Source: Gemmatimonadaceae bacterium
GTDB taxonomy: Bacteria > Gemmatimonadota > Gemmatimonadetes > Gemmatimonadales > Gemmatimonadaceae
Length of the DNA: 42,850 nucleotides
Assembly: GCA_051005015.1 (NCBI GenBank)
Contig: JBPCJT010000243.1
Coordinates: 1-42,850, forward strand
Reading direction: 5' to 3'
Part shown: positions 3,139 through 42,850 of the stretch, piece after piece
Layout of the letters: each line of letters opens with the position of its first letter
Position numbering within the stretch: the stretch's first letter is position 1
Made by a program: the position numbers and the translations under genes
Notes under the pieces: model-generated
Told to the model about the DNA's origin: nothing
The model's input: only the letters and a program-made list of their open reading frames with translations
Database searches by the model: none

Positions 3139-3515
3139 TAGTCAATTGCGTAAAAACGGCCGAGCTGCTGCACTTCTGGTCAGCCACCGACAGCGCAGGA
3201 GCTGCACGGCAGCTTGAATGCTCCCATCTTCAGTAAATCGAACGCTTAGTGGTCGATTGCGTAAATACGGCGGCATTCGAGCGGCGCAGCACTGAAGCCC
3301 AAGGTGTACTCACAGAAAAAATGAGACAGGATGACAGGATGACAGGATGGAAATAGTCCGCTGATTCACTTACGAGCCCATCCTGTTAATCCTGGTCATC
3401 CTGTAAAAGAAGGCATCCTTTTCTCCGAACGGCGGCGGTCATTCAACGCTGCGCTGGAGGAGGCGTTTCGGCGCTCCCGATACGTTGCCGTATTTACGCA
3501 ACCTGCCGCTTAGTC
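3139..3515. repeat. three copies of a 15-16 nt motif ATTGCGTAAA(A/T)ACGGC (two direct, one inverted) with related flanks
   Basis: Cores are at 3145..3160 (attgcgtaaaaacggc), 3256..3271 (attgcgtaaatacggc) and, inverted, 3487..3501 (gccgtatttacgcaa). Flanks share agt(a/g)gtc(a/g) upstream and cgagc(t/g)gc..gcac downstream. All copies lie in the 643-nt non-coding gap between the divergent PduO-type and FNR genes. Confidence 0.7.
3316..3403 (-). terminator. long imperfect hairpin built from (GACAGGAT)x3 and its inverted copy, followed on the minus strand by a T6 run
   Basis: 3325..3350 reads gacaggatgacaggatgacaggatgg, and 3378..3403 reads ccatcctgttaatcctggtcatcctg. About 23 bp can pair, with bulges. 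On the minus strand the stem is followed by tcaTTTTTTctg (A6 at 3316..3321 on plus). No annotated minus-strand gene lies upstream of it. Confidence 0.45.
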
Positions 3516-5700: not shown

Positions 5701-5760
5701 GAGCGAAGTAGTAGCCATACTGTTGGGGAATTTGTAGCGGTTGCTGTTAGGAGGCCGCAT

Positions 5761-5788
5761 TTCGCAGTCCGCAGTTCGCAGCTCGCAA
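5761..5788. repeat. heptamer array TTCGCAG TCCGCAG TTCGCAG CTCGCAA (C-form of the GATTGCG/GACTGCG family)
   Basis: Read directly from the sequence. Its reverse complement shares the words gattgcg, gactgcg, gaactgcg and gagctgc with the arrays at 24121 and 37742. Confidence 0.65.
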
Positions 5789-5809
5789 TCCTTTGCGACG
5801 GGGAGGGGC

Positions 5810-6889
5810 ATGATGCAGATCGGGAACCGAGCACCGAGTACCGCGCAGTGCCACCCGGACACCGGGCACCGGGCACCGGGCACCGGATTCGTTGCGAGTG
5901 AAAGCCCGTTCAGGCAGCGGCCGCGCCGCGCAATTGCGCTCATTTTCACAGCTCTATTCGTGGTCGCTACCGCGCTTCAGGCGCAGAAGAGCATGACGGA
6001 GCGCGGCATACAGCTCTTTGAGCTAGGTCAATACGACGCTGCGAAAAAGGAGCTTGATGCAGCTCTCCAGCAGGATGAGCGAACCACATCCACACTTTTC
6101 TATCTGGGGCGAATCGCCATGATAGAAGGTGATTTCAGCGGGGCGTCCCGGCTGTTCGAGCGCGCTACTCGCACTGAGGGCGCAACGTCCGAACACTATA
6201 GATGGTTCGGGCAGGCATTGGGACAGTTGGCGGCGCGCGGAAGCAAATTCAAAGCCCCGTTCGCTGCCAGGAAAGCCAGGGCGGCTTTCGAGCGCGCGGT
6301 GTCCCTGGACCCGGAGAACGTGGAGGCGCGCGTGGCGCTGCTGCGGTATTATCTCATCGCGCCCGGCGTGATGGGTGGAAGCACCGAGCGGGCCGCGCGA
6401 CAGGTTCCCGAAATCGCCAGGCGAAGCCCGTTCTGGGGGCGGCTCGCCGCGGCCGGTGTGCACGAAGACCGAGCGGACAATGCCGCCGCGGAACGCGAAT
6501 ACCAGAAAGCCGTCGATGAGTACCCCGACAGCTCATCGGCGCTGTATGCGCTCGGCCTTCTATACCAACGGCTGGAGAAGAACGATGAGGCATTCGCCGC
6601 GTTCGAGCGGATGGTGGAAAAGCACCCCGCCAAAATCAACGCGCTGTATGCTATCGGCCGCCTGGGCGCCCAGACCGGACTGAGGCTGGATCGCTCCGAG
6701 GAGGCTCTCAAACTCTTCCTCTCCAAGCCAGTGAAGGAAGACAACGTGCCGCGATCATCCGCGCTTTACCGGCTGGGTATGATCTACGAGAAGACCGGAC
6801 GGCGAGAACTGGCACGTAAGGAATACGAGGCCTCCCTTGGAATCGAGCAACGCTCCGAAGTAAGGCAAGCGCTTGCCCGGCTAAAATAG
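5810..6889 (+). CDS. TPR-repeat protein, probably secreted
   Basis: There are several TPR-like units (YDAAKKELDAAL, FYLGRIAM.EGDF..A, ALYALGLLY.R.....EA...FE..V, ALYRLGMIYEK.G....A). A signal-peptide-like segment reads RRAIALIFTALFVVATALQAQ. The start is uncertain. The ATG at 5810 has GGGAGGGG upstream but would translate the heptamer array at 5824..5886. No ATG/GTG/TTG exists between that array and the signal-like segment. Confidence 0.7.
   Translation: MMQIGNRAPSTAQCHPDTGHRAPGTGFVASESPFRQRPRRAIALIFTALFVVATALQAQKSMTERGIQLFELGQYDAAKKELDAALQQDERTTSTLFYLGRIAMIEGDFSGASRLFERATRTEGATSEHYRWFGQALGQLAARGSKFKAPFAARKARAAFERAVSLDPENVEARVALLRYYLIAPGVMGGSTERAARQVPEIARRSPFWGRLAAAGVHEDRADNAAAEREYQKAVDEYPDSSSALYALGLLYQRLEKNDEAFAAFERMVEKHPAKINALYAIGRLGAQTGLRLDRSEEALKLFLSKPVKEDNVPRSSALYRLGMIYEKTGRRELARKEYEASLGIEQRSEVRQALARLK
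5824..5886. repeat. nine phase-coherent heptamers (63 nt), consensus GCACCGG, decaying toward the 5' end
   Basis: Units are gaaccga gcaccga gtaccgc gcagtgc cacccgg acaccgg gcaccgg gcaccgg gcaccgg. I verified the coordinates unit by unit. Confidence 0.8.
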
Positions 6890-7569: not shown

Positions 7570-9072
7570 ATGAAAGACGCGAGTGATCTAATCCGGAAGA
7601 TCCGGACCGGCGTACCCGGGTTCGATGCCGTGCTTGGGGGTGGCTTGCCGGAGAATTCCTTCAACCTGGTCGCTGGCGGTCCGGGGTCCGGCAAGACCAC
7701 GCTGACTCTGCACACCATGTTCGCGAACGCCACAGTGAAGAGGCCAGGGCTGTATTTCACGGTGCTCGGCGAGCCGACACTGAAAATGATACGGTACCAG
7801 CGGCAGTTCAGCTTTTTCAAGCCGGACATGGTTGGTTCTGCCTTGCAGTTCGTGAACCTGAGCGAGCAGGTGCTGAAATACGATCTCGACCTGGTTTTGG
7901 AGCGGATACAGCGAGAAGTTGAGCGCGCCAGACCCGGCATCATCGCGGTCGACTCGTTCCGGCCGATAGGCCGCAAAATCGGCGAACCTGTTTCGGCGCA
8001 TGCCATGGACCTCGAGCACTTCCTTCAGCGGCTGGCGCTCAATATGACTTCCTGGGAGGTGACATCCTTTCTGCTCGGCGAGTACTCCGAAGAAGAGAAG
8101 CAGAACCCGGTTTTCACCGTGGCCGACGGAGTGTTCTGGATGCAGCAGGTGACCGACCGGAATTCTGTAGTCCGCAAGATGCAGGTCATGAAGGTACGTG
8201 GGCATGAGCCCATGCCGGGCTTGCACACTTTTCGAATAACGGATGCCGGCCTGCAGATATTCCCACGCATCCCCGAGCAGCAGAAGTCGCGCCGGCCGCA
8301 GTCATTCAAGCGAACCGGCACCGGCGTACCAGGGCTCGACGAGAGAATGGGGGGCGGAATTCCGGTCGGAGACGTGGTAATGCTCGCGGGGCCGGCCGGG
8401 AGCGGCAAAACGACGTTCGCTTCGCAATTCGTGTCAGAAGGTCTCCGACAGGGTGAGTCCGCGGTGATCGCGATTTTCGAGGAATACCCCGAGGAGTATC
8501 TCGGGCGCGCCCGATCCCGGAATGGGGACCTGGAGGAGAAGCTGAAGTCGGGTAAGCTGAAGCTCCTGTACTTGCGTCCGCTCGATCTCTCGGTGGACGA
8601 AACGCTGCATGAAATTCTGGAGGCCGTCAACGAGGTCGGTGCCACACGAGTGGTAATAGACTCGCTGTCGGGTTTCGAGATTGCGCTCGCACCTGCATTC
8701 CGTGAAGACTTCAGGGAGTCGCTTTATCGTCTTGCTGGTGCGCTGACTGCGACTGGCGTGACCGTTTTCACGACCGCAGAAACGACCGGCAGGTATTCCG
8801 ATTTGAGCTTTACGACCGAAAGGGTTTCCTTCATCACCGATGACATCATCGTGCAGCGCTATGTCGAGGTTGACGGGGAGATTCTTACGATCCTGTCGAT
8901 CATGAAAATGCGCGGGAGTGAGCACAGCCGGGAGTTTCTCATCTACGAGATCACCGAAAAGGGAGCGTCCGTGGGGGGTCCGCTTCTGGGCTACCACGGC
9001 ATCCTGTCGGGAATACCCAGCCCAATAGCGTCACTCGAGCGCCCGGCCGGGGTACATGGTGAAAATGGCTGA
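7570..9072 (+). CDS. KaiC-family double RecA-like ATPase
   Basis: There are two tandem KaiC/RecA domains, each with GVPG(F/L)D...GGG(L/I)P and a Walker A motif (GGPGSGKTT, GPAGSGKTT). Walker B motifs are IIAVDSF and VVIDSLS. The C-terminal KMRGSEHS...EIT.KG segment is typical of KaiC. Confidence 0.9.
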   Translation: MKDASDLIRKIRTGVPGFDAVLGGGLPENSFNLVAGGPGSGKTTLTLHTMFANATVKRPGLYFTVLGEPTLKMIRYQRQFSFFKPDMVGSALQFVNLSEQVLKYDLDLVLERIQREVERARPGIIAVDSFRPIGRKIGEPVSAHAMDLEHFLQRLALNMTSWEVTSFLLGEYSEEEKQNPVFTVADGVFWMQQVTDRNSVVRKMQVMKVRGHEPMPGLHTFRITDAGLQIFPRIPEQQKSRRPQSFKRTGTGVPGLDERMGGGIPVGDVVMLAGPAGSGKTTFASQFVSEGLRQGESAVIAIFEEYPEEYLGRARSRNGDLEEKLKSGKLKLLYLRPLDLSVDETLHEILEAVNEVGATRVVIDSLSGFEIALAPAFREDFRESLYRLAGALTATGVTVFTTAETTGRYSDLSFTTERVSFITDDIIVQRYVEVDGEILTILSIMKMRGSEHSREFLIYEITEKGASVGGPLLGYHGILSGIPSPIASLERPAGVHGENG

Positions 9073-10804
9073 CAGGCTGGCGGGTGAAGACAATCCCTTC
9101 GCCCAGGGCGCCTTCCGGGAGTACATGGAGCACGCTCCACAGGCGTTCACGGTCACTCAGGGCGCCGCACAAACGCTCATTTATGCCAATCCAGCGTTTC
9201 GCCGCATGACCGCAATGACCGGAAAGGACGTGGTGGGTATCCCAGTCTGCGACATGTTCGCAGGGCGCGATGCAACAGAGTTACTCGCACTGCTCGACGG
9301 TGCGATGGAACAGGGCATTCCCGTGCGGGATTACCCGGTGGAGTCCTTCGACAATATGGCGGCGATGTGGATCTGTACGGCCTGGCCCGTTCTGGATGCC
9401 AGCGGCCATCCGAATCACCTTGTCATCGAGCTACGAAATGACTCCCACGTGGAGCATTCCCTGGCTATGCAGAGGGATGTTACCGAGCGCCTGCTTCTGA
9501 GCGCGTTGCGCGAGAGTGAGGCCGCGGACAGCGCCAGGGTATCCAGCTGGCGAGATGCATTTCTTGCGAAGGCGAGCCGCGAGCTTGCCGAGACGCTCGA
9601 CGAGCAAGTCATGATTCAGACCCTGGCGAAGCTCGCGCTGCCCCACCTCGGTGCATGGTGCATTGTCGACACTATCGAAGCCGATGCCTCCGTACGGCGT
9701 CTGGCGATCTTCCATCCAGATCCAGTTAAACAAGCGCTGGCTCGGGAGTTGGAAGGCCGCTGGGCTCCCGCGCCAGAAGATCTGTTCGGTGGCCCGGCCG
9801 TACTTCGCGGCGCCGCAGCGACGATTAGCGCCGAACACGTGGAAGCGGCAATAAGAGATACCGAAAGTGGCAGGGACAATGCCTGGGCGCTTTCGGAGCT
9901 TGGCATAGGGCCTGTGCTTACAGTCCCCCTGGTTGCCCGCGCGAAGCTCCTCGGTGTCGTAACCTTTGTAGGAAAGAGTGGTGCGCACGACTATACCCTG
10001 GCCGACGTGGAGTTGGCCCAGGACCTCGCGGCCCGGAGCGCGGTGGCTATTGACGGTGCGCAATTGTATCGCGAGGCCCTCCTGCGCAAGGTAAAGGCCG
10101 AGGTGGCGAACCAGGCCAACACGGCATTTCTGGGAAGGGTCAGTCATGACCTTCGCGCACCCCTGAACGGCATACGCGGCTACATCGACCTCATCGACGA
10201 GGGAATACGCGGGCCCGTGACGGATGCGCAGCGCAGGGACCTCGACCGCATTCGCAAGAACCAGCAGCACCTGCTTCGCCTGGTCACCGAGATTCTGAAC
10301 TTCGTGCGCCTGGGAAGCGATGGCATGCCGTACCACATCACGGACGTCACCGTGCAAGACGCCGTGCATTCCGCCGTGGCCCTGATCGAGCCGCTGATCG
10401 AGGAGAAGAGGCTCGCATTTCAGGGACCCGAGTGCGGTGCGGACGTAGTTTTGCGTGCCGATCCCCTGCACGTGCGAAAGATTCTCCTCAATCTGCTCTC
10501 CAACGCGATCAAGTTTACGCCGTCCGGGGGTCACGTGACGATCATCTGTGAGGCAAAGCCGGAGTCAGTCATGGTGAGAGTAGAGGACAGTGGCATTGGC
10601 ATCCCTCCAGACAAGCACGAGTCCGTGTTCGAGCCATTCGTGCAGGTGAAGAACGGTCTGGCGGACGGCGACGCCGGATTTGGCCTGGGGCTGGCAATCA
10701 GCCGCGATCTCGCGCGCGGCATGCAGGGCGATTTGCGAGTGGAGAGCGAGCTTGGTGCGGGCTCGCGCTTCACGCTCACTCTGCCGCGAGCCAGCAATCA
10801 CTAA
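9056..10804 (+). CDS. PAS-GAF sensor histidine kinase (no receiver domain)
   Basis: H-box FLGRVSHDLRAPLNGIRGY, N-box LLNLLSNAIKFT, G-boxes DSGIGIP and GFGLGLAISR. The N-terminus is a PAS-like then a GAF-like region. The start overlaps the KaiC 3' end (ATG at 9056, or ATG at 9065 in an ATGGCTGA overlap). Confidence 0.9.
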   Translation: MVKMADRLAGEDNPFAQGAFREYMEHAPQAFTVTQGAAQTLIYANPAFRRMTAMTGKDVVGIPVCDMFAGRDATELLALLDGAMEQGIPVRDYPVESFDNMAAMWICTAWPVLDASGHPNHLVIELRNDSHVEHSLAMQRDVTERLLLSALRESEAADSARVSSWRDAFLAKASRELAETLDEQVMIQTLAKLALPHLGAWCIVDTIEADASVRRLAIFHPDPVKQALARELEGRWAPAPEDLFGGPAVLRGAAATISAEHVEAAIRDTESGRDNAWALSELGIGPVLTVPLVARAKLLGVVTFVGKSGAHDYTLADVELAQDLAARSAVAIDGAQLYREALLRKVKAEVANQANTAFLGRVSHDLRAPLNGIRGYIDLIDEGIRGPVTDAQRRDLDRIRKNQQHLLRLVTEILNFVRLGSDGMPYHITDVTVQDAVHSAVALIEPLIEEKRLAFQGPECGADVVLRADPLHVRKILLNLLSNAIKFTPSGGHVTIICEAKPESVMVRVEDSGIGIPPDKHESVFEPFVQVKNGLADGDAGFGLGLAISRDLARGMQGDLRVESELGAGSRFTLTLPRASNH

Positions 10805-16584: not shown

Positions 16585-16697
16585 AGAGTGAACAGCCCAA
16601 CAGCGAACAACTGTAAACAACACTTGTGGGAGTCGATGCATGCCGGCTAACCGCACTTCACTGATCACTTAATCACTGTTCACCGTTCACCGTTCAC
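16581..16697. terminator. inverted pair of 6x7-nt heptamer arrays (GTGAACA family) between the convergent ferredoxin and hydrolase genes
   Basis: Left arm 16581..16622: gtgaaga gtgaaca gcccaac agcgaac aactgta aacaaca. Right arm 16656..16697: cttcact gatcact taatcac tgttcac cgttcac cgttcac. The ferredoxin TGA (16582..16584) lies in the first left unit. The hydrolase C-terminus EVNGER-stop is encoded by the right arm. Confidence 0.6.
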
Positions 16698-17765
16698 TTC
16701 AAAGGCAAAAATATCCTCCAGCGGTGCTGCGGCCACGCGGCCAGGTTTTGTCTCGGCTAAATGAGGTGGGCCAATCTCGATGACGCTCCGCACCTGATAA
16801 ACGATCTCGGCCGGCTCCTCGAAGTCTATGGAAATGATTTTCGCCTGCACCATGTGGCCGTCCCGAAAATTCAGTCGTACTTCCTTACCGCGCTGCCGCG
16901 CAAGCCGCTGCAGATGAATAATTCCCGGTGATTTGTAGCGGTAGCAACCTACTGCGCGATCGAGCCATTGCTCGATTTCTTCCGCGGGATGCTCCCAGCC
17001 TGGTTCCCACATAATGAAGTGCGCATGGCCGAGATACTGGTGAAAGGCAGCGCCGTACTTCCGAGCAACGCGACGGGCGACACGTGCAGTCACAAACCTG
17101 TCGTCCGTTGCGGAGACGACGAGCATTGGGCACCTGACGCGGGCTTCGTCCACGCGAACGCCGAGGAGAATATCCAACCCAGCGCGTCCGCTGTCAGGAA
17201 CGAAGCGCGCGTGTAGCGAAGCGACCTCGTCGCTCGGTATGCAGTTGAGCGTCAGCGCCCGATCATCTGCCAGGGTTCCCATAATGGGGCATGAACGCAA
17301 CAATGTTGGCAGGTATCTGATCTGGCGAAGCAACAGCGTCGCACCGATGAGAGGAATGCCCCGCGGCGGCGCCGGTCCGAGCAGCACGGCCGCGCGCACT
17401 GCGTCCGCCTCCGCCAGCTTCTGCGCGATCAGTCCCCCCATCGAATGCCCTACGACGATGGGTCTATAGTCAGAATCGTGAGTTGTCAGCTTGAGGGACG
17501 TCAGCCAATTGGCCGCCTCGAGGGCGTCTTCCACATAGTCCAGAAAGCGCACGGAGCCGATGTCTCGTACGGGACGACTGCCGTGATGGCCGCGCAGGTC
17601 GAGCGCGTATGTCGGATATCCAAGCGCCGAGAAGAAACCCTGGTACTTCTCGAAGTACCAGGCGCCGCCGAGGAATCCATGAACGAAGAGAATTGGCGGC
17701 CGCTGAGCAGTTCTCGGCTGTTCAGAGAAGATGTTCAAACCGTTTAGAGTCAGCACCTCAGCCAT
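16680..17765 (-). CDS. alpha/beta hydrolase with a C-terminal extension of about 95 aa
   Basis: ILFVHGFLGG, nucleophile elbow GHSMGG, and a late GHAHF. The ATG at 17765 (MAEVLTLNG) has GGAAGG upstream. The last ~95 residues (KSPGIIHLQRLARQRGKEVRLNFRDGHMVQAKIISIDFEE...) lie outside the hydrolase fold. Confidence 0.85.
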   Translation of the reverse strand: MAEVLTLNGLNIFSEQPRTAQRPPILFVHGFLGGAWYFEKYQGFFSALGYPTYALDLRGHHGSRPVRDIGSVRFLDYVEDALEAANWLTSLKLTTHDSDYRPIVVGHSMGGLIAQKLAEADAVRAAVLLGPAPPRGIPLIGATLLLRQIRYLPTLLRSCPIMGTLADDRALTLNCIPSDEVASLHARFVPDSGRAGLDILLGVRVDEARVRCPMLVVSATDDRFVTARVARRVARKYGAAFHQYLGHAHFIMWEPGWEHPAEEIEQWLDRAVGCYRYKSPGIIHLQRLARQRGKEVRLNFRDGHMVQAKIISIDFEEPAEIVYQVRSVIEIGPPHLAETKPGRVAAAPLEDIFAFEVNGER

Positions 17766-22311: not shown

Positions 22312-22469
22312 TGCTTCCTCCTTGCTGACAGTCGCCGCTCGGCTCCAGCGCGTTCGATAAGGATATTATACACGAATTGGTGGCAAGGGGTCGCGCGCGG
22401 GAGGAGGGAGGCGCTTCGCGGGCGGCGAGGGCTAATCCGATGACGTATTTGTCGGGCGCAAGTCATTGC

Positions 22470-22565
22470 CGTCTCCACGTCTCCCGCCTTCACGCCTTCC
22501 GTCTCTCGCCTCCAACGCTTCCCGCCTCCACGCCTCCCACCTCCCGCCTCCCGCCTCCCGCCTCC
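22470..22565. repeat. 13-unit CG-initiated pyrimidine array (units CGYCTYC, 7-9 nt); the complement is a run of GGAGG motifs
   Basis: Units are cgtctcca cgtctcc cgccttca cgccttc cgtctct cgcctccaa cgcttcc cgcctcca cgcctcc cacctcc cgcctcc cgcctcc cgcctcc. The array lies between divergent htpX and the 22583 gene. It is followed by TATATT (22567..22572) 10 nt before the ATG. Confidence 0.8.
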
Positions 22566-22582
22566 CTATATTCCACTCCCTC

Positions 22583-22897
22583 ATGCCGAACCCCTTCAAC
22601 CTCGATCCGCGCCGCCTCGCTCTCGGAGCTGCCAAGCGTTATCTCCTGGACGATCGCCCACCTGGCTCGGCGGCAGACAAACCGCCGCGCCTGACTCCCG
22701 AAGCCCTTTCACACACAAAAATGTCCCGTTCTCGCGAGCGTATTCTCGCCAATCTCGACGATATGTTCGGAGAGGCGTTCGAGCGCGCCAAAGCCGCCGG
22801 CGACGACGCGCAGATGCAAACCCTCGACTTCGCGTACAGGCGCGAGCAACTCTACCTGGAGATCCTCCTGGACATTCGCGATGCGGTAGAAAAGTGA
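22583..22897 (+). CDS. hypothetical protein (104 aa)
   Basis: An in-frame ATG follows the pyrimidine array (MPNPFNLDPRRLALGAAKRYLL...). The C-terminal half is helical and charged. I recognise no family. Confidence 0.5.
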   Translation: MPNPFNLDPRRLALGAAKRYLLDDRPPGSAADKPPRLTPEALSHTKMSRSRERILANLDDMFGEAFERAKAAGDDAQMQTLDFAYRREQLYLEILLDIRDAVEK

Positions 22898-24090: not shown

Positions 24091-24120
24091 GCGAAGGTAT
24101 TAGAGCAAGGGGGTCGAGGG

Positions 24121-24207
24121 GATTGCGGATTGCGGATTGCGAAGCACAGGCCAGTTGCGAACTGCGTCCGCAAATGCGAGCTGCAAGTTCCTGGTTCCTG
24201 GTTCCTG
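24121..24207. repeat. composite heptamer arrays: (GATTGCG)x3, a degenerate GCGAACT/GCGAGCT stretch, then (GTTCCTG)x3
   Basis: 24121..24141 reads gattgcg gattgcg gattgcg. 24153..24186 reads agttgcgaactgcgtccgcaaatgcgagctgcaa. 24187..24207 reads gttcctg gttcctg gttcctg. Confidence 0.8.
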
Positions 24208-24273
24208 GTGTACTGTTGCATTCAAAATACGACTCTGGTTCCTTTCTCGGTCACGGGTCACTCCAATTCCCGC

Positions 24274-25959
24274 ATGCTCACCAAATCTGTTTTCCTCCCC
24301 GCGCTCATCTTTGCTCACTCCGGGTGCGCGATGACATCCCCTGCTTCCCAGCCGGTACCATCTCCCTCCGGATCCGAAATCACCCTCGCGGTAATCAATG
24401 CGAGAGTGTGGACCGGAGACACCCGGCGTCCGTGGGCGGATGCAGTTGCTGTGCGTGGCGACCGGATTGCCGCGGTGGGGTCCGGGGCGGAAGTTCGCAA
24501 GATTGCTGGTGAGAAGACGCGCGTAATCGACGCGGGCGGAAAAATGCTCGTGCCTGGTTTCATCGATGCGCACGTGCATTTTATCGACGGCGGTTTCCGG
24601 CTCTCATCCGTGCAGTTGCGCGATTCAAAAACGCCGGCGGAGTTCATAGCCCGGATCAAGTCGTACGCCGCAACTGTTCCTCCGGGTACATGGATCACTG
24701 GCGGCGACTGGGATCACACTGTGTGGGGGGGAGAGCTTCCTCACCGAGGCTGGATCGACCCGATCACCCCCAATCATCCCGTTTGGGTCAACCGGCTCGA
24801 TGGCCACATGGCCCTGGCCAATAGCGCGGCGCTCGCAGCAGGCCGGATAACCGCCTTGACCCCCGAAGTCGAGGGTGGAACCATTGTCCGGGATGCGAAC
24901 GGGGAGCTTACCGGCTTACTCAAGGACAACGCGCTGGAGCTGGTAAATCGCGCAGTCCCCAGCGCGCCTCCTGCGTTGAGCGATCGCGCGCTCGACGCTG
25001 CCATGCGCTTCGTCGCGGAACAGGGCGTAACGTCGATTCACAACATGGGATCATGGGACGACGTTGCCGTATTCGAGCGCGCTCGTGCGGGCGGACGTCT
25101 GACGACGCGCATTTACGCTGCAGTGCCGCTGGCGACGTGGCAGCAGTTGCGCGATACGGTGGCGACGCGAGGGCGAGGCGACAATTGGCTTGGAGTTGGA
25201 GCGCTCAAGGGATTCGTCGATGGCTCGCTCGGATCTCACACAGCGGCGATGCTCCAACCCTTTACCGACTCACCACGCGACACCGGACTTCTGGTTACCA
25301 CGCCCGAGAACCTGTACGCTTGGACGTCGGGCGCGGACAAGGCCGGACTCCATGTCGCGGTGCACGCAATCGGCGACCGCGCCATTCGCCTGCAGCTCGA
25401 CGTGTTCGAGCGTGTCGCGCGTGAGAACGGTGAGCGCGACAGACGCTTCCGTATCGAGCACGCGCAACATCCGCATCGCGCCGATATCCCGCGCTTCGCC
25501 GCGCTCGGCGTAATCGCGAGCATGCAGCCGTATCACGCCATCGATGATGGACGCTGGGCGGAAGCCGTCATTGGTGCCGAGCGAATAAGGACGACGTACG
25601 CGTTCCGGTCGCTTCTGGACTCCAGGGCGCGAATCGCTTTCGGCAGCGATTGGTTCGTGGCTCCGCCTACGCCGCTCGAAGGGATCTATGCAGCGGTCAC
25701 CCGACGAACGCTCGACGGCAAGAATCCGGGCGGTTGGGTGCCGGCCGAAGCGATTTCGGTGGAAGAAGCGCTGCGCGCATACACGATCGATGCGGCCTAC
25801 GCCAGCTTCGAGGAAAAGGAGAAAGGGACGCTGGAGCGCGGTAAGCTCGCCGATTTCGTTCTCATCGATCGCGATCTCACGCGCATTCCACCCGCAACCA
25901 TTCGCGACGCCCGGATCGTCATGACTGTAGTAGGAGGAGAGCCCGTCTTCGAGCGCTGA
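24274..25959 (+). CDS. metal-dependent amidohydrolase (amidohydrolase-3 / YtcJ-like), secreted or lipid-anchored
   Basis: PGFIDAHVHFIDGG (HxH), HAIGDRA, and later EHAQH and GSDW. The N-terminus MLTKSVFLPALIFAHSGC is signal-like. The ATG at 24274 is preferred over the track start, which would translate the heptamer arrays. Confidence 0.88.
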   Translation: MLTKSVFLPALIFAHSGCAMTSPASQPVPSPSGSEITLAVINARVWTGDTRRPWADAVAVRGDRIAAVGSGAEVRKIAGEKTRVIDAGGKMLVPGFIDAHVHFIDGGFRLSSVQLRDSKTPAEFIARIKSYAATVPPGTWITGGDWDHTVWGGELPHRGWIDPITPNHPVWVNRLDGHMALANSAALAAGRITALTPEVEGGTIVRDANGELTGLLKDNALELVNRAVPSAPPALSDRALDAAMRFVAEQGVTSIHNMGSWDDVAVFERARAGGRLTTRIYAAVPLATWQQLRDTVATRGRGDNWLGVGALKGFVDGSLGSHTAAMLQPFTDSPRDTGLLVTTPENLYAWTSGADKAGLHVAVHAIGDRAIRLQLDVFERVARENGERDRRFRIEHAQHPHRADIPRFAALGVIASMQPYHAIDDGRWAEAVIGAERIRTTYAFRSLLDSRARIAFGSDWFVAPPTPLEGIYAAVTRRTLDGKNPGGWVPAEAISVEEALRAYTIDAAYASFEEKEKGTLERGKLADFVLIDRDLTRIPPATIRDARIVMTVVGGEPVFER

Positions 25960-30625: not shown

Positions 30626-31828
30626 ATGCAAAAGATTCCCTTCCTTTGCGGCGCCATTCTAGCCGCGAGTCTGACTGTCCCTTCCACATCCTCCGCCCAG
30701 ATAGGCGGTCTCATCAAGCGAAAGGCGAAGGAAAGGATCGAACAGAAGATTGTCGAATGCATGGCGACGGATCTGGAGTGCATCAGGAAAGCGAAAGCCG
30801 AGGGGAAGGAAGTAAAGGTCACGGAGAGTAGCGAAGTCGCGACAGACGCTGGAGGCGTGAGCGCGGCAGCAGGCGGCTCCGTTTCTCTTAAGCCTGGCGA
30901 AGGCGCGTGGGCGAACTACGACTTCAAGCCCGGCGACAGGATCCTCTTCGCAGACGACTTGACCAAGGACAACGTGGGGGACTTTCCACGGCGGCTGGAG
31001 TTTATCGAGGGGACCTCGGAGATTGTTGAATGGAAGGGGGGGCGGTATCTTCGCGGCACATCGGCTGTGAGGTTCGAGATTCCGCTCGCCGAGGTTTTGC
31101 CGGAGCGGTTCACGCTTGAATTCGACTACAGTGCCGGCTCGGGCTCGCTGAATGTCTACCTCGACAAAGTCAAGCACCAGTACGATCACTTCGTCTTTCA
31201 CCCTCACGGAGAGGGTGGTATTCAGATGGAAGGCCGGTCTGCGATCGCCAGGATCCCTGGAGTAAGCGGAGCCGCCGGCGCTCTTTACAAAGTGCGCATC
31301 ATGGGTGACGGCAAGTACCTCAAGGTCTACATGAACGAAACCCGGGTCGCCAACGTACCGAATGCCGACCTCGGCCGAACCAACAAGATCCATTTCTGGG
31401 TTGGTAGCAATAACGATCTTCCATCGTTTATCACAAACTTCAAGGTGGCCGCGGGCGGTAAGCCTCTATACGACGCACTCTCCGAAAAGGGCCGCGTCGC
31501 GACGCAGGGCGTTTATTTTGACTCCGGGTCCGACAAGATTCGCCCCGAATCCACCCCCACTCTCAAGGAGATCGGCGCGATGCTCAAGGAACACGCCGAC
31601 CTCAAGCTGACTATTGAGGGGCACACTGACAACGTGGGCAATGCGCAGGCGAATCATGACTTGTCGCACAAGCGCGCCGCTGCGGTCAAGGCATTTCTTG
31701 TCAGCAGTTATGGAATCGACGCGGGGCGGCTCGAGGCGACAGGGTTCGGGGACAAGAAGCCGCTGGCGCCGAACACCACACCGGAAGGACGGCAGCAAAA
31801 TCGCAGAGTGGAGCTCGTCAAGGGCTGA
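30626..31828 (+). CDS. OmpA-family protein with an N-terminal beta-rich domain
   Basis: Signal peptide MQKIPFLCGAILAASLTVPSTSSAQ. C-terminal OmpA-like domain GVYFDSGSDKIRPES...L.IEGHTDNVG....N..LS.KRA.AV...L.....I...RL...GFG...P......EGR..NRRVELV. Confidence 0.88.
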   Translation: MQKIPFLCGAILAASLTVPSTSSAQIGGLIKRKAKERIEQKIVECMATDLECIRKAKAEGKEVKVTESSEVATDAGGVSAAAGGSVSLKPGEGAWANYDFKPGDRILFADDLTKDNVGDFPRRLEFIEGTSEIVEWKGGRYLRGTSAVRFEIPLAEVLPERFTLEFDYSAGSGSLNVYLDKVKHQYDHFVFHPHGEGGIQMEGRSAIARIPGVSGAAGALYKVRIMGDGKYLKVYMNETRVANVPNADLGRTNKIHFWVGSNNDLPSFITNFKVAAGGKPLYDALSEKGRVATQGVYFDSGSDKIRPESTPTLKEIGAMLKEHADLKLTIEGHTDNVGNAQANHDLSHKRAAAVKAFLVSSYGIDAGRLEATGFGDKKPLAPNTTPEGRQQNRRVELVKG

Positions 31829-31859
31829 GCGAAGCCAGGGAAGCCGACGGCGGGGAGTC

Positions 31860-31881
31860 GGGAAGCGTCCAACACGCTTCC
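31860..31881 (+). terminator. hairpin GGAAGCG-tccaaca-CGCTTCC 32 nt after the OmpA-family stop (no T-run)
   Basis: A perfect 7-bp stem with a 7-nt loop, read directly from the sequence. Its 3' arm is also the first unit of the heptamer array at 31875. Confidence 0.4.
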
Positions 31882-31937
31882 CGCTCTGCGCCTCCCGTCT
31901 CCCGCTCTGCGCCTCCCGCCTCCCGCCCCCCGCCCCC
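31875..31937. repeat. nine phase-coherent heptamers (63 nt), consensus CGCCTCC, ending 1 nt before the HIT start codon
   Basis: Units are cgcttcc cgctctg cgcctcc cgtctcc cgctctg cgcctcc cgcctcc cgccccc cgccccc, followed by c and the ATG at 31939. I verified the coordinates unit by unit. Confidence 0.85.
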
Positions 31938-31938
31938 C

Positions 31939-32433
31939 ATGACCAAGGCTAGTGCGCATTGTATTTTCTGCGACATCGTCAAGGGTGCCGCAGAGGTGTC
32001 CGTGTGTTACGAGGACGCGGACGTGCTGGCATTTATGGACATTCAGCCCGTAAATCCGGGGCACACCCTCGTTGTTGCGCGAGCTCATCACGAGTCACTC
32101 GAAGAACTGCCCAGGGCACTCGGCGAACATCTCTTCGGGGTGGCGCTCATGCTCGGGCCTGTGATCCACAAAGCATCGCAAGCCGAGGGAATGAATCTGA
32201 TAGTTTCGAGCGGGGCGGCGGCGGGGCAGGATGTCTTTCACTTCCACATTCACCTGATTCCGCGCAGGAAGGGGGATGGCTTCGAAGTTCAGCTCCCCTT
32301 TGGCAGATCGGAGATGCCTGACCGCACCATGCTCGACGCCATGGCTGCGCGCATCATATCGGTGCTTCGAGATCCAGCGAGGAGCAGGAAAACGAATGTC
32401 GGGAAGCGAAGGGACCGGGGGAGTGGAGAGTAG
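31939..32433 (+). CDS. HIT (histidine triad) family hydrolase
   Basis: C.FC.I..G, then DI.PVNPGH.LV, and the triad HFHIHLIPR. Confidence 0.9.
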   Translation: MTKASAHCIFCDIVKGAAEVSVCYEDADVLAFMDIQPVNPGHTLVVARAHHESLEELPRALGEHLFGVALMLGPVIHKASQAEGMNLIVSSGAAAGQDVFHFHIHLIPRRKGDGFEVQLPFGRSEMPDRTMLDAMAARIISVLRDPARSRKTNVGKRRDRGSGE

Positions 32434-32497
32434 GGAGCAGGGAGGGAGATTACAACGGTTACCCGCCATCCTTACTCCCTACTCCCCGCTCCCCTTC
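32422..32497. terminator. inverted pair of 4x7-nt arrays (AGTGGAG family / complement) between the convergent HIT and MCP-like genes; both TAG stops lie inside the arms
   Basis: Left arm 32422..32449: agtggag agTAGgg agcaggg agggaga. Right arm 32470..32497: ccttact ccCTAct ccccgct ccccttc. The 21-nt cores match 17/21 as inverted copies. Both proteins end in GSGE-stop. Confidence 0.65.
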
Positions 32498-34644
32498 CTG
32501 TTTCCTCCGTCCCTTACGGCCGCCACCGCCGACGAGAGGTCTTGAGCCATCCTGCTCAAATCGGTCGCTGCGTCGTTCAGCGCCGCCAGCGACGACGCCT
32601 GTTCCTCGTTCGCCGCCGCCACGGAGTCAGTTTCCGTCGCCGCGCGCTCCGCGTCTTCCCGGGCTGCCACAAGCGAATTCGCCATCGCGGCTGAGCGATT
32701 AGCGGTTTCTCTGGCAGCGATCGCTATCCGGCCGCCCACGGCCGCGACTGCTTCCGAAGCTTCAACAATCTTGTCGAGATCGCGGGACCAGCTGCCGCTG
32801 GCCTGTGCGACCGACAGCACTTCGCTGCGAGTGCGTCCCATGAGCGTCACCGCTCGATCGAGCGTCGCGCGAATGTCGCGGACCGCGCGTTCCATCCCTT
32901 CCGCCTCCTCGGTGCTCTTGTCGGCCAGTTTGCGAACTTCCTTGGCGACGACCGCAAAGCCGCGGCCGTGTACGCCTGCCCGTGCGGCTTCCACAGCAGC
33001 GTTCAGCGCGAGTAACCCGGTCTGGTCGGCGATGGTGGTAATCGTATGTCCGAAGCGTTGCACGACGCGAGACACCGTCTGTAGTCGAGCAACCTCGTCG
33101 CTTCCTTCCTGAACGATTGCGGCCGCGGCGGTAAGTTTCGTAATGGCGTCGCGAATTGCGTCTCGGACACCGCGCGCTGTATGCACCATGCGTTGTCCGC
33201 TGTCTCTCGTCTCGGCCCCTTCACCGTGCGCGGTGTCGGCGGAAGCGCGCACGACGTGAGCGTCCTCAGCGCCGGCCGCGAGTGTGTCGGCGAGAACGCG
33301 GACTGAGGCGTGAACCTTGGCCGCGCTCTGTGCGCTCTCGGCGGTTGACGCCGCGAGCTGCTGAGTGGTGGCGGTGATCGATTCCACCTGGATCGCCGTG
33401 CGCTCCGATGCTGATAATACCGGTCGTACCAGGGAGTCCAGTTGCATCGACAGCGCCAGCTGAGGAGCGAGATAGCCGAGTAGAGAGGCATCGTGCTGGC
33501 GGTACATGCGCGCGAGCCTGTGCCTAATGCTCCAGAGTCCCACTAGCTGAGCGCCATGTTTGAGAGGAATGATGATCTCGGATCCCGTGTGCCCCCATTC
33601 TTCGCGCGCGTGGCGCGGCAGATCGGTGTCCGTGGTGGCGGTTCCGCTCTCGACTGCGAAGCCCGCCATTCCACCACTGGCGGAAAAACGCGAACCGAAC
33701 GGCTTGGCAGGATCGGTTTCAGCAAGAACCACGAACTCGTGCCGCTGGCGGTCATATGCCGAGAGTCCCATTTCCTGCCAGGGTACAAGGGTGCGCGTCA
33801 AGGCCTGTGTGTCCTGGAGCGCCTGCATGATCTCCGCGCGCGCTGTAATCAGGCTGCCCAGGCGATTCACCAGCTGCATGCTCTCACCGGTGGCGCCCTG
33901 CCGCACCAACCAATGCGACATCATCGTCAGACCGCAGATAATCAGCGCGAAGGTCACGTACTGTGGCGCCGTCAGCGACGAGTAATGCAGCCGTAGCGCT
34001 CCCAGGCCGAGGAGCGTAGCCAGTACCGTTACCGTCGCTTCCCATCGCATGCTCAGCTTGACGTCTACCCACGCTATGGCCGGAGAAAGCCGAAGCTGCA
34101 GATAGAATGTCGTATTCTGAATGACAGGGACGAGAGCGCAAAGCAGGACGAGTCGCCAGACATTCCAGGGGGCAAAAGCCGCGGTGCCAAGCCCCCCACC
34201 GAGGAGCGTGTAGATCCAGCCACTGACTGCGACCGCAGCCGTGACGTGCGACGCATTGGAAATCGCGTTGCGTGCGGGCAGCCGCCGAACCACCATGTCG
34301 CCGGCAACGATGCCAATGGCGGAGACGATAGCTCCAGCGGCCCACCCGAGCGCAAACACCGACGCCGTAGCAGTTCCGATGACGAAGCTGGCGAAGCCCT
34401 TTCCGGGGAGGGGAATACCGAATGCCCGAGCGCCAACGGTCAGCCAGAAAACGAGTAGCGCTACAGTCCATGGGAAGGGGCTCAGGTACTGCTTGAAAAC
34501 AAAGCCGAGTGATACCGCGAGCACGGCTGCCGGCATCACGGTGCGCCGGACGATCTCATCGGTAAGCCAGGAAGGCTTCTGCAAAGGGTCGGTGTCGCCG
34601 GTCGGGGTATCGAACTGCGTTGCTGGTGCGGTAGCTGCGGTCAT
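32479..34644 (-). CDS. methyl-accepting chemotaxis-like sensor: polytopic membrane N-terminus + GAF-like domain + MCP signalling domain
   Basis: The C-terminal signalling hairpin reads [44 protein letters not shown]. About 8 hydrophobic helices occupy the first ~300 aa. I see no HAMP domain. The ATG at 34644 ([10 protein letters not shown]) is preferred. Confidence 0.85.
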
Positions 34645-34941: not shown

Positions 34942-35346
34942 ATGTTGAAGACTGGCCAGACTAGACAACGCGTTCACCGAACAGCCCTTCCACGTGCGAT
35001 AATGCGTCGCGCGCGCCCGCACGTGCACGCCGCCCACAAGCGAGCGCTCAAGCGCGCCACCTTACGAGATTGCGCCAACCGCTGCGTTTATTGCGGTTTA
35101 TGTCTCGATTCGGAGATGGCGACGCTGGACCACGTTTTTCCAATCGCCAGAGGAGGCATGCACACACCCGGGAACGTGGTCACTGCATGTGGTCCATGCA
35201 ACCGGCGCAAGGGGGACATGCTCCCGCACGAGTTTTTTCACCGGTATCCAGGAGCGGGATTGAATTTTCTGGCTTATGCGCGCGTGGTGCACAGGGCCTT
35301 GAAGCGAGGGGCGCGCCGGGCGGTCAGTCTGGCCATGGCGGCCTAG
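34942..35346 (+). CDS. stand-alone HNH endonuclease
   Basis: CVYCG...LDHVFPIARGG.....NVVTACGPCNRRKG (CxxC...DH...N...CxxCN). Confidence 0.8.
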   Translation: MLKTGQTRQRVHRTALPRAIMRRARPHVHAAHKRALKRATLRDCANRCVYCGLCLDSEMATLDHVFPIARGGMHTPGNVVTACGPCNRRKGDMLPHEFFHRYPGAGLNFLAYARVVHRALKRGARRAVSLAMAA

Positions 35347-35404
35347 ACAGTGCTGCCGTAAACAATGGGGTCGTCCCGCAACGAGTGTGCGATGACGCCA
35401 AGCT

Positions 35405-37697: not shown

Positions 37698-37741
37698 GCG
37701 GAGAAAATGGCGCGGGAGGAGGGGTGAGGCAACTGGGTAGG

Positions 37742-37881
37742 GATTGCGGACTGCGGATTGCGGATGACGCCTAACCGCTCATGGAGGCGGGATGGCAACC
37801 GACTAGATTGCGGCCAAGCTGGTGGTGGCCACAGGGACGCTCTAACGGACGGTTGGTCCGGCAATCCGCGATCTGCAATCA
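37742..37881. repeat. inverted heptamer arrays of the GATTGCG family flanking a ~90-nt spacer
   Basis: 37742..37769 reads gattgcg gactgcg gattgcg gatgacg. 37861..37881 reads gcaatcc gcgatct gcaatca. The 20-nt cores match 17/20 as inverted copies. An extra gattgcg lies at 37807..37813. Confidence 0.75.
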
Positions 37882-40830: not shown

Positions 40831-42850
40831 GTGAATGATCGCTCGGTGCGTGAATTCCGATTCGATATCCCATCCATCGAGCTGCTGCGCCAGCTCCTCT
40901 CCGCTCCCCTCCCACTCGGGTTTCGCGGCTCCGATCCGGAACGTTCGCTCCACCGTGATATCTACCTGGACTCTCCCGACGAGACGCTGAAACGCCGGGG
41001 AGTCTCCTGCAGACTCCGATTCTGCGCGGACGACCGCCGCTTTCTCACCCTGGAGATCGGAAGCCCGGACAAAACGGGCGACCAGAATGTCGAGCGTTTC
41101 AGCGCCCACACCGAGGCATCCGATGCGCGGCTGGCCGTGACCGGAGAGTCCCCTCCGGCGCGCCGGTTGCGAGGAATAATGGACCCTGCATCCCTGGCGC
41201 CAGTGCTGCAGGTGGAGACGGAACGGTGGACGCGCCGAGCGGCAAGCGGTTGGTTCGGTCCCAAAGCCGCATTTCTGTATGACATCGTCACGGTTCGATC
41301 TGGCGCTACCTCAAAGTCTTTTCAACAGCTCACCGTCATTCCGCTTGGTGGTGGGATACTCTCAGCGGAAAAGCTCGAGAGCGAGCTACGGGAAGCGCAC
41401 GGGCTGCGAATCAGCCGCGCGTCCACGTACGAGCGCGCGCGGCTGCTGCTCAAGTGGATGCGCGGGGAGGATGGAACAGCGACCGAAAACCAGCAACCAG
41501 GAACCAGGGAAGCTGCGGATGAGTGGCCCCCGGTTTCCCAGACCGTGGTCCCCCACGCTACTCCTGCACGCACACGCGCAGTCGCTTCTCGCATGCGGGC
41601 GAGCGTACCCGTCACAACTTCCAGCGCCGGGGGCGGCGCCGCCTCCGAGTTCCTGAACAGCGAGCTCAGCCTCCTAGAATTCAACGCGCGCGTCCTAGCG
41701 CTGGCAGAGGACCCCGGAACACCGCTCCTCGAGCGTCTGCGCTTTCTGGCAATCGTGAGCGCAAACAACGACGAATTCTTCATGGTTCGCGTCGCGGGAC
41801 TCAAGGACGATGCAAGCGAGACATCGGAGGAGCGTAGTCAGGATGGAATGTCAGCCGATGAACAGCTCATTGCCATCGCGCTTCGGGTGCCGCCCTTCCT
41901 GGCGCGCCAGTACAACTGCTACAGGCAGTGCATGAACGAGCTCGCAAAGCATGGCGTTCGCACCGTTACCTGGAGTGAGCTCGATGACGCACAGCGCGAG
42001 TATCTCCGGGGCTATTTTCGGGACGAGCTCTACCCCGCGCTCACACCGTTCGCCATGACGCTCAGTCCCGGACACCCATTTCCCACGATCCCGCATCTCT
42101 CCTTGTCGCTCGCGGTACTCGTCCTCGATCCAGGGCGCCCACCGGCGCACTTCGCGGAGGTAGAGCTGCCTGAGAGAATTCCACGCTTTACGACGCTTCC
42201 TGGTTGCGCCCATGTGATCGCCATGGAAGAGATTGTGCGCGCTAATCTCGCCGCGCTGTATCCTGATGCCCACGTCGAGCAGGCATGGATGTTCCGAATT
42301 ACGCGGAGCGGTGACCTGGCGTTGGAGGAGGAAAGCGCCGACAACCTGCTGCAGGCAGTTCATGACGCCACTACGCGCCGGGCGCGCAACGCCGTGGTGC
42401 GCGTCGAGGTTGAGCGTGGGATGCCGGACATGTTGCGCGATCTGCTCCTGCGGCAGCTCAAGAGCGAGCGCGGATCCGATGCAAGCGACCTCTCGCTTGA
42501 CGACTTTTACGAAGTAGAGGGCCTGCTGGATCTTCGTTGCCTGGGCGAGCTCGCCTCGCTGGCAATTCCCGAGCTGCGGTATCCGCCCTTTGAGCCAGGC
42601 AATTCGCTCTCGGCGCGCAGCTCGATGTTCGATCAGATTACCAAGCGCGATTTGCTGGTGCATCACCCCTTTGACGACTTCGCGGCTACGGTGCAGCGGT
42701 TCATGATAGAAGCTGCTGACGATCCGGATGTGAGCGCGATCAAGCTGACTGTGTACCGCGCCGGGGAGCGCTCGCCACTGCTTGACGCCCTCATCAAGGC
42801 AGCGGCAGCTGGCAAGGAAGTCATCGTTTTTGTGGAGCTCAAGGCACGCT
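40831..42850 (+). CDS. ppk: CYTH domain fused in frame to polyphosphate kinase 1 (3' end beyond the window)
   Basis: In my translation from the GTG at 40831 (a TGA lies immediately upstream in frame) I found no stop codon up to 42850. Residues 1 to about 210 are CYTH-like (VREFRFDI...RDIYLDSPDETLKRRGVSCRLRF...LTLEI). From about residue 270 the PPK1 N-terminus begins: FLNSELSLLEFNARVLALAEDPGTPLLERLRFLAIVSANNDEFFMVRVAGLKD. The ORF is absent from the track only because it is open at the window edge. Confidence 0.85.
   Translation, partial: MNDRSVREFRFDIPSIELLRQLLSAPLPLGFRGSDPERSLHRDIYLDSPDETLKRRGVSCRLRFCADDRRFLTLEIGSPDKTGDQNVERFSAHTEASDARLAVTGESPPARRLRGIMDPASLAPVLQVETERWTRRAASGWFGPKAAFLYDIVTVRSGATSKSFQQLTVIPLGGGILSAEKLESELREAHGLRISRASTYERARLLLKWMRGEDGTATENQQPGTREAADEWPPVSQTVVPHATPARTRAVASRMRASVPVTTSSAGGGAASEFLNSELSLLEFNARVLALAEDPGTPLLERLRFLAIVSANNDEFFMVRVAGLKDDASETSEERSQDGMSADEQLIAIALRVPPFLARQYNCYRQCMNELAKHGVRTVTWSELDDAQREYLRGYFRDELYPALTPFAMTLSPGHPFPTIPHLSLSLAVLVLDPGRPPAHFAEVELPERIPRFTTLPGCAHVIAMEEIVRANLAALYPDAHVEQAWMFRITRSGDLALEEESADNLLQAVHDATTRRARNAVVRVEVERGMPDMLRDLLLRQLKSERGSDASDLSLDDFYEVEGLLDLRCLGELASLAIPELRYPPFEPGNSLSARSSMFDQITKRDLLVHHPFDDFAATVQRFMIEAADDPDVSAIKLTVYRAGERSPLLDALIKAAAAGKEVIVFVELKAR
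41486..41506. repeat. heptamer array AAACCAG CAACCAG GAACCAG inside the CYTH-PPK linker
   Basis: Read directly from the sequence. It is the reverse complement of the GTTCCTG family seen at 24187..24207. Confidence 0.6.

Follow-up and report, generated by a model that had tools for sequence, protein, structure and literature searches.

In many bacteria, long simple-sequence repeats are reported to be most often heptanucleotide ones (Mrázek 2007, as cited in PMC4692102 and PMC4679880). In Xanthomonas, heptamers of the (GGGAATC)n/(GGGANTN)n type are about 90% intergenic, lie near the end of the upstream open reading frame (ORF), form convergent inverted pairs in 70 of 186 cases, and keep their place between given genes across related species as their length and sequence vary; a search for their function was unsuccessful (Rehm et al. 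2015, PMC4692102). The same paper names GGGGA(C/T)T heptamer repeats of Nostoc, for which few inverted pairs are reported. In marine Beggiatoaceae, TAACTGA heptamers are located in 5' leaders, where their largest class stops 1 nt short of the start codon, and a mechanism of the S1 type or one involving cold-shock proteins has been proposed (MacGregor 2015, PMC4679880). Here we describe heptamer arrays in a 42,850-nt stretch of DNA from a Gemmatimonadaceae bacterium (contig JBPCJT010000243.1 of assembly GCA_051005015.1; the whole stretch is called the window below), where one array precedes a HIT-family gene and two others form a hairpin between that gene and a convergent gene with an MCP-signalling domain. 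In our literature search, no report of such repeats in Gemmatimonadota came to light; unexplained short repeats of 90 and 150 bp are mentioned, but not characterised, for two genomes of this phylum in a paper from 2024.

We take these arrays to be the local representatives of a class of heptanucleotide simple-sequence repeats that is lineage-specific and genome-wide and would have grown by slippage, the hairpin at the HIT/MCP junction being most likely a transcript-end structure, and we put the probability of this reading at roughly 0.6. A preliminary description of the locus had presented the HIT gene as bracketed by complementary heptamer arrays. The bracket is not specific to HIT: it consists of two copies of a class that is built of many different units and populates all types of intergenic region.

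The class was delineated in 80 loci around HIT orthologues from species-representative genomes, to which the window and L001/L004 were added (1.19 Mb, reported as 82 Gemmatimonadaceae loci; individual loci are denoted by L numbers). A GC3-based gene caller was dropped owing to its weak discrimination at 61% G+C, at which it missed HIT. Strict arrays numbered 90 at period 7 versus 0 to 2 at periods 4 to 6, 8, 10 to 13, and 15; there were 15 at period 9 and 7 at period 14, which is twice 7. With a looser threshold (12), the count rose to 147 period-7 arrays versus 1 to 28 for periods 5, 6, 8, 9, and 10, while first-order Markov sequences, simulated with a cutoff looser again, gave an expectation of about 2. 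In the window itself, the strict scan of periods 4 to 15 returned six arrays of period 7, a single one of period 8, and nothing else, and 100 dinucleotide-preserving shuffles of it yielded no strict array at all.

The great majority of the 147 arrays (129, or 88%) were intergenic, compared with about 11% of the DNA, and the others stood at ORF ends or in doubtful 5' extensions. Their density per kb was 4.7 in convergent gaps, 1.9 in divergent, and 1.4 in tandem ones. Eighty-six arrays formed 43 inverted pairs, in which the arms stood a median of 45 nt apart, and many of those scored as unpaired have a decayed partner. The purine-rich arm was the 5' one in 40 of the 43 pairs (binomial p about 1.5e-9), a polarity that, given the symmetry of the structure, is the same on both strands. 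Of the 18 convergent-gap pairs, most have arms beginning between -7 and +24 nt from both stop codons; the HIT/MCP junction of the window is typical, except that its ORFs extend slightly further into the arms. Several elements have a unique GC-rich hairpin at the centre, the stem of which is lengthened by the arrays. The aligned units gave the logo R-G-G/A-R-R/W-N-C, the commonest being AGAAAGC (11/147) and GGGAATC (9/147), followed by GCGGATT, AGGGGTC, GAGGAAC, GGAATGC, and GGGGAGC. Each genome favours certain unit families at unlinked sites, for instance, AGAAAGC in L025, GGGAATC in L038, and GGGGAGC in L040. Since so few families recur within a genome, two arrays flanking one gene can be complementary to each other.

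The composition of the units bears directly on the idea, proposed for the G-rich heptamers of Xanthomonas and Nostoc, that such arrays act as G-quadruplex or i-motif switches in DNA or RNA. The purine-rich arm at 32418-32446 of the window does contain four or more G3 tracts (GGGG…GGG…GGG…GGG), the complement of the array preceding HIT (31876-31938) has (GGGGGGC)(GGGAGGC) runs, and GGGAATC repeats form a G-quadruplex in vitro (PMC4692102). However, GGG is present in only 62 of the 147 units, the commonest unit, AGAAAGC, lacks even a GG, and in paired arrays the hairpin would compete with the quadruplex. As most units are without GGG, the quadruplex was rejected as a general explanation, and we assign such switches only a marginal probability.

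Comparison of close relatives showed how the arrays change. Between L001 and L003, two sister-species assemblies 98% identical over 980 nt, the sole multibase indels are two exact 7-nt units, both located inside the arrays 5' of HIT. In orthologous gaps the hairpin stays while the unit changes, and both arms change together: the pairs 5' of HIT are GGATTGC/GCAATCC, GGAATGC/GCATTCC, GGAACGA/TCGTTCC, GGACCGA/TCGGTCC, and GCGAGAT/ATCTCGC in relatives and GGGAGNN/CGCCTCC in the window. Likewise, the junction past a conserved HNH-endonuclease gene carries heptamer hairpins of four units in five relatives (L011, L014, L022, L031, and L033). The window has no array at this junction (34942-35346 / 35347-35404), nor has L004 in the gap between the OmpA-family gene and HIT. 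On the scale of lineages the presence of arrays is all-or-none. They were found in every locus of HIT clusters 2 (to which the window belongs), 6, and 10 and of one subclade of cluster 4, and in none of the 13 loci (163 kb) of cluster 3 or in clusters 1, 8, 9, 14, and 15; G+C content does not separate the two groups. An assembly artefact was rejected, given that the arrays recur at orthologous sites in many independent assemblies.

This free turnover of unit sequence also suits a neutral or selfish by-product, that is, slippage-prone junk tolerated only between genes and functionless at this locus, with the inverted arrangement and the co-variation of the arms produced not by selection but by DNA mechanics such as template switching or hairpin or cruciform gene conversion. 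It would fit as well with the occurrence of arrays in all intergenic types, 53 of them in divergent gaps, with the two array-free orthologous gaps just mentioned, with the differing copy number between close strains, and with the Xanthomonas analogues, for which no function could be found. What speaks against it is that hairpins are kept at the same junctions over species-level divergence, that convergent-gap arms lie tight against both stops, and that the purine-first polarity would require an extra mechanistic assumption. We consider this account possible, if tentatively so, and for the class as a whole it remains a serious rival.

The fit to the stop codons can be followed in detail at the HIT/MCP junction. 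The HIT gene (31939-32433, + strand) encodes a protein of 164 amino acids with the histidine triad HFHIHLIP, an HxHxHxx motif (Pfam PF01230, E = 3e-22); H101, H103, and H105 are invariant across 30 relatives, and the ATG at 31939 is supported by the orthologues, every one of which starts M-x(5-8)-HCIFCD. The convergent gene (32479-34644, - strand) encodes a membrane protein with a GAF domain and an MCP-signalling domain (721 amino acids as called in the database; Pfam PF00015, E = 7.9e-29). The full heptamer-built hairpin occupies 32401-32506 on either strand, filling the gap between the two genes and reaching into the ends of both. Its purine-rich 5' arm (32418-32446, + strand; GGGGAGT GGAGAGT AGGGAGC AGGGAGG) encodes GSGE of HIT and the TAG at 32431-32433, and the complement of its pyrimidine-rich 3' arm (32466-32494, + strand; …CCTTACT CCCTACT CCCCGCT CCCC) encodes (K)GSGE of the MCP and its TAG (CTA at 32479-32481). 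The arms are 29 nt each, 83% complementary, and 19 nt apart. A strong hairpin was predicted for the RNA of either strand, at -62.7 kcal/mol for the + strand and -65.6 for the - strand (z about -4.3 to -4.4), values equalled by none of 200 shuffles. A stable GC-rich stem-loop, as expected of a Rho-independent terminator, stands at the stop codons, with the stops themselves lying within the arms. Relatives devoid of arrays carry GC-rich hairpins of the ordinary kind 3' of HIT. The stem is flanked 3' by CCUUCCUGUUUCC on the + strand and by CCCGGUCCCUUCGC on the - strand. A search of the whole window against Rfam at the gathering threshold gave no match. An ORF of 89 amino acids (32276-32545, + strand) runs through the hairpin in another frame. 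In the cluster-10 genomes L009-L011, L014, L015, L018, L020, and L022, a conserved nonrepeat stretch, cctttttcgg…gtcgaaaatatgaaaggcggacgcg…, lies just 3' of the HIT stop and may represent a small gene or a conserved RNA.

The reading of the HIT 3' end as GGG AGT GGA GAG TAG and of the MCP/GAF gene 3' end as AAG GGG AGC GGG GAG TAG agrees with the preliminary description, according to which two unrelated proteins both end in GSGE-stop encoded by the two arms of one inverted repeat. That the repeat wrote these tails, as was also claimed there, is borne out by the orthologues. The 120 best relatives of each protein were listed, and a GSGE ending, which by the preliminary description would have spoken against a repeat origin if it occurred in orthologues lacking the repeat, was present in 0 of 119 listed HIT relatives and 0 of 119 listed MCP/GAF relatives. 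The cores end earlier, with ...LRDPxR followed by 0 to 25 hypervariable residues in the listed HIT relatives and with ...AVAAVRxG followed by 0 to 3 residues in the listed MCP/GAF relatives. In the window, the HIT core ends near residue 147 (…LRDPAR), and the last ~17 residues (SRKTNVGKRRDRGSGE) are a lineage-specific tail running into the repeat; the MCP core ends …AVAAVRDG, and the 8-residue extension GNRKGSGE was found in the window lineage only, the closest listed MCP/GAF relative (88% identity) ending …AVAAVREGQ. The HIT tail of L007, an 81%-identical relative, contains GIGNRESGIG, the literal translation of (GGGAATC)n, and that of L004, REEGGGKRGAKSG, is read from a decayed (GGGAGGC)n arm. 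These comparisons support the view that the GSGE tails are repeat-derived, lineage-specific read-through and not conserved protein sequence. The two tetrapeptides are identical because the arms are near-identical 5' to 3' on their own coding strands and because a short tail results in the TAG frame alone; read on the + strand, both other frames of the arm stay open for ~37 codons or more. Of the 17 convergent hairpins examined, the window alone had matching tails, and a tail shared by both ORFs was therefore rejected as a general rule. The identity is an accident, a passive by-product of the repeat, and both tails, which are short and hydrophilic, are probably harmless disordered extensions.

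We propose that arrays of R-G-G/A-R-R/W-N-C units grow and shrink in steps of a single 7-nt unit, presumably through replication slippage, and that, being usually arranged as inverted pairs in which the purine-rich arm is the 5' one and the pyrimidine-rich arm the 3' one, they extend the stems of hairpins between genes. The hairpin between HIT and the MCP gene would provide an RNA-level end structure for both genes, either as a terminator devoid of a U-tract or as a 3' stabiliser. The pyrimidine-rich 3' arm could take the place of the U-tract by forming a weak RNA:DNA hybrid, an idea that rests on established RNA:DNA hybrid thermodynamics. Both ORFs would have lost or bypassed older stops, so that they now end at the TAG offered by each arm in one frame.

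Several points weigh against this scheme. The stem is followed by no U-tract, and a scan for terminator consensus sequences in 31600-32700 came up empty. Convergent and divergent gaps hold 54 and 53 arrays, respectively, and the divergent-gap pairs are purine-first in 15 of 16 cases; with as many divergent as convergent arrays, and the same polarity in both, termination cannot explain the whole class. Nor does slippage alone explain the complementarity of the arms, their strict polarity, or the recurrence of unit families at unlinked sites. The survey, too, has its bounds: every sampled locus is centred on HIT, and orthologous gaps were consequently counted repeatedly, and the codon log-odds caller used for the gene calls gives crude starts, which makes the typing of intergenic regions approximate.

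What slippage leaves unexplained would be accounted for if the purine-first hairpins were an actively maintained system, in which a trans-acting factor found only in the array-bearing lineages creates or homogenises the units and the hairpins double as U-tract-independent bidirectional terminators whose outer pyrimidine-rich arms serve as leaders lacking a Shine-Dalgarno sequence. Such a factor might be a protein that binds the repeats and covers 7 nt, or else some specific activity in replication or repair. If true, this would explain the lineage pattern, the recurrence of units at unlinked sites, the concerted change of the arms, and the strict polarity. We regard this reading, in which the hairpins are no passive products of slippage, as unlikely and speculative. 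Dispersal as a mobile element resembling repetitive extragenic palindromes (REP) or miniature inverted-repeat transposable elements was rejected for now: the loops and flanks of pairs within one genome are unrelated in L038, L040, L020, and L014, and the 30 window ORFs scanned, which belong to housekeeping families or gave no match, include neither a transposase of the REP-associated tyrosine type (RAYT) or other nor a reverse transcriptase. In L025, two AGAAAGC hairpins (3224-3322 and 10482-10599) have similar nonrepeat centres (GTGAAC.GCCTCGG…GAGCCGTT). Nothing else points to a possible spread of some copies through duplication or mobility.

The second element of the locus is the pyrimidine-rich heptamer array in front of HIT (31876-31938, + strand), nine units with the consensus CGCCTCC and 84% identity to it, directly followed by the HIT ATG. 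The preliminary description was right in placing a C-rich heptamer array there, although the units, in order CGCTTCC, CGCTCTG, CGCCTCC, CGTCTCC, CGCTCTG, CGCCTCC, CGCCTCC, CGCCCCC, and CGCCCCC, match the consensus at 53 of 63 bases and are thus degenerate and not nine exact copies. Tandem Repeats Finder described the array as period 7 x 7.1 copies (82% matches) and as period 21 x 2.5 copies (90%). Its first units form the 3' arm of a short hairpin (31849-31892, + strand), in which the base of the array is joined to a purine-rich partner 21 nt past the stop of the gene located 5' of HIT, a member of the OmpA family by Pfam; the remainder of the array is predicted to be unpaired. The core of this hairpin, also detected as an inverted-repeat match, is GGGAAGCG-TCCAACA-CGCTTCCC, extended by GGCG.GGAG / CUCU.CGCC, and the minimum-free-energy (MFE) fold of 31826-31945 has -49.3 kcal/mol (z -2.1). 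An 11-mer of the hairpin, GTCGGGAAGCG, is found again at 32398-32408; having GTCGGGAAGCG and GGGGAGT in common, the two hairpins flanking HIT represent one family. We suggest that the leader array is the over-grown pyrimidine arm of this second hairpin just past the OmpA-family gene, an overgrowth that would leave HIT with a C-rich leader without a Shine-Dalgarno sequence.

The absence of a Shine-Dalgarno sequence before HIT, which had been pointed out earlier, is true and nothing special: an SD-like 4-mer at positions -18 to -4 was found in 40 of 73 HIT orthologues with secure starts and in 227 of 930 gene calls (108 in a control interval). Starts of this kind are ordinary and common in the Gemmatimonadaceae group. 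Pyrimidine arrays also reach the HIT ATG in L024, L032, L037, and L038, with unrelated unit sequences, and units adjoining the ATG in other relatives include TCGCATC, TCTCTC, and CCGATT. Going by these leaders, the recurring trait before HIT is pyrimidine richness and not CCUCC.

These observations bear on the mechanism put forward in the preliminary description, in which the leader could pair with the 3' end of the HIT transcript and its CCUCC repeats mimic the anti-Shine-Dalgarno sequence. Such pairing would circularise or regulate the HIT mRNA, and the mimicry would control the translation of a gene that lacks a Shine-Dalgarno sequence. The leader and the G-rich 3' arm are indeed complementary: the predicted duplex of leader and 3' arm reaches -58 kcal/mol, the arm is the best partner of the leader in the mRNA, and the MFE fold pairs the two if the transcript ends before 32466. 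L007 has complementary GGGAATC-type arrays on both sides of HIT, and the gene starting at 22583, which likewise has no Shine-Dalgarno sequence, also stands behind a CCGCCTC array. Once the C-rich arm is part of the transcript, however, the local hairpin takes the G-rich arm. In L001 the units do not match, CGGGAAW/CCYGATT upstream against GGGGAGT/AGGGGTT downstream (compared by eye), L004 lacks the upstream array altogether, and complementarity of this kind follows from the dominance of a few unit families in each genome. The anti-Shine-Dalgarno mimic finds no comparative support, since relatives carry quite different units in the same position, and starts without a Shine-Dalgarno sequence are common in the group. 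We therefore consider this mechanism very unlikely.

The sole match to the window HIT protein in a look-up was a Logan contig of 2.9 kb that does not differ from the window and is hence uninformative on polymorphism, and an exact-match scan of metagenome contigs with the HIT 5' end gave no match. No sigma-70 promoter consensus site was found in 31600-32700. Many relatives (L009-L046 and others) have a sigma-54-type promoter motif (TGGCAC-N5-TGC, e.g., ctggcactcggcctgcgtat) about 25 to 50 nt 5' of the HIT ATG. The motif is missing in the window, L001, L004, and L007, where HIT sits after the OmpA-family gene. The lack of the motif and the position behind that gene suggest a rewired expression of HIT in this lineage. 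In L009-L036, the gene that diverges from HIT has a conserved AAGATAG (reverse complement CTATCTT) about 8 to 15 nt from its start codon. Its resemblance to a -10 box very near the ATG hints at leaderless or very short-leader mRNAs in the family.

The window contains further members of the class. A CCGCCTC array of ~13 units (22469-22566, + strand; 98 nt) belongs to the same unit family as the HIT leader array and is longer than it; it stops 16 nt before the ATG of a 104-amino-acid ORF (22583-22897) without a Pfam match or a Shine-Dalgarno sequence and has a decayed purine-rich partner, GGAGGAG GGAGGCG…, at ~22400-22432. Two adjacent arrays, CGCAGTT x4.6 (5756) and CCGGGCA x4.6 (5855), occupy 5756-5886, an intergenic stretch 5' of a TPR gene, and the arrays GGATTGC x3 (24120) and GTTCCTG x3 (24187) stand at 24120-24209 in the divergent gap between TerC and amidohydrolase genes. 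Some units return elsewhere: GGATTGC x3.6 at 37741-37765 shares its unit with 24120 and is the reverse complement of the unit at 5756, and AACCAGG x3 at 41488-41508 is a reverse-complement rotation of the GTTCCTG at 24187. An array of about six TTCACTG units (16657-16698) overlaps the stop of an alpha/beta-hydrolase gene on the - strand. The sole nonheptamer member seen in the window is an inverted pair with a period of 8/9 nt at 3325-3404 (arms at 3325 and 3380), (GACAGGAT)x3 … (ATCCTGnnn)x3. The 5' extensions of the ORFs 5741-6889 and 24130-25959 swallow arrays and, like the ORF 32276-32545 at the HIT/MCP junction, are likely misannotation traps. Elsewhere in the window (7570-10804), a gene for a KaiC-like double-domain ATPase extends 17 nt into the beginning of a PAS/GAF histidine kinase gene, which suggests an operon.

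The local weight of these findings is small, as the GSGE coincidence is a side effect of the repeat. Their wider significance is that Gemmatimonadota, a soil phylum, joins the few groups with abundant intergenic heptamer repeats and that it offers a clean comparative set, all-or-none between sister lineages, with position kept while both arms turn over and with a purine-first polarity in nearly every pair, which bears on why period 7 is favoured and on what heptamer repeats do. They also carry a warning for annotation, in that C-terminal tails and some 5' ORF extensions are repeat-encoded in these genomes.

Set beside the described systems, the arrays resemble the REP elements, the bacterial interspersed mosaic elements (BIME), and the bidirectional intrinsic terminators of enterobacteria in being stem-loops that fill convergent gaps, where the enterobacterial ones presumably terminate or stabilise the transcripts arriving from either side. 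A REP, however, is one conserved palindrome of ~35 nt per genome mobilised by a RAYT transposase, whereas the stems described here consist of variable heptamer units, their loops are unrelated, no transposase is found nearby among the window ORFs, and there is no U-tract. With the TAACTGA repeats of Beggiatoaceae they have in common a heptamer array in the leader that ends at the start codon, as at the window HIT ATG; those repeats differ in having a single unit, almost no inverted pairs, and an orientation fixed to the downstream gene. The cyanobacterial heptamers, reportedly named short tandemly repeated repetitive (STRR) sequences by Mazel et al. in 1990, and those of Nostoc likewise comprise several lineage-specific families, tandem and dispersed in intergenic DNA, but their genomes are AT-rich, the unit sequences differ, and in Nostoc inverted pairs are few. 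The closest likeness is to the Xanthomonas repeats, which share the period of 7, the intergenic bias, the position near the end of the upstream ORF, the G- or purine-rich arm first in inverted pairs, the restriction to lineages, and even the unit GGGAATC, the second commonest in our sample. The Gemmatimonadaceae arrays differ from them in belonging to another phylum, in the far larger number of unit families in each genome, with several G-poor ones among them (AGAAAGC, AGAATTC), owing to which G-quadruplex potential is not general among them, in not being depleted from divergent gaps in our sample, and in the ORFs that sometimes run into the arms. With an excess of period 7, an intergenic bias, inverted pairs, and variation of length and sequence among close relatives, all as in heptamers of the Xanthomonas/Nostoc type, the Gemmatimonadaceae arrays are a new lineage for an already known kind of repeat.

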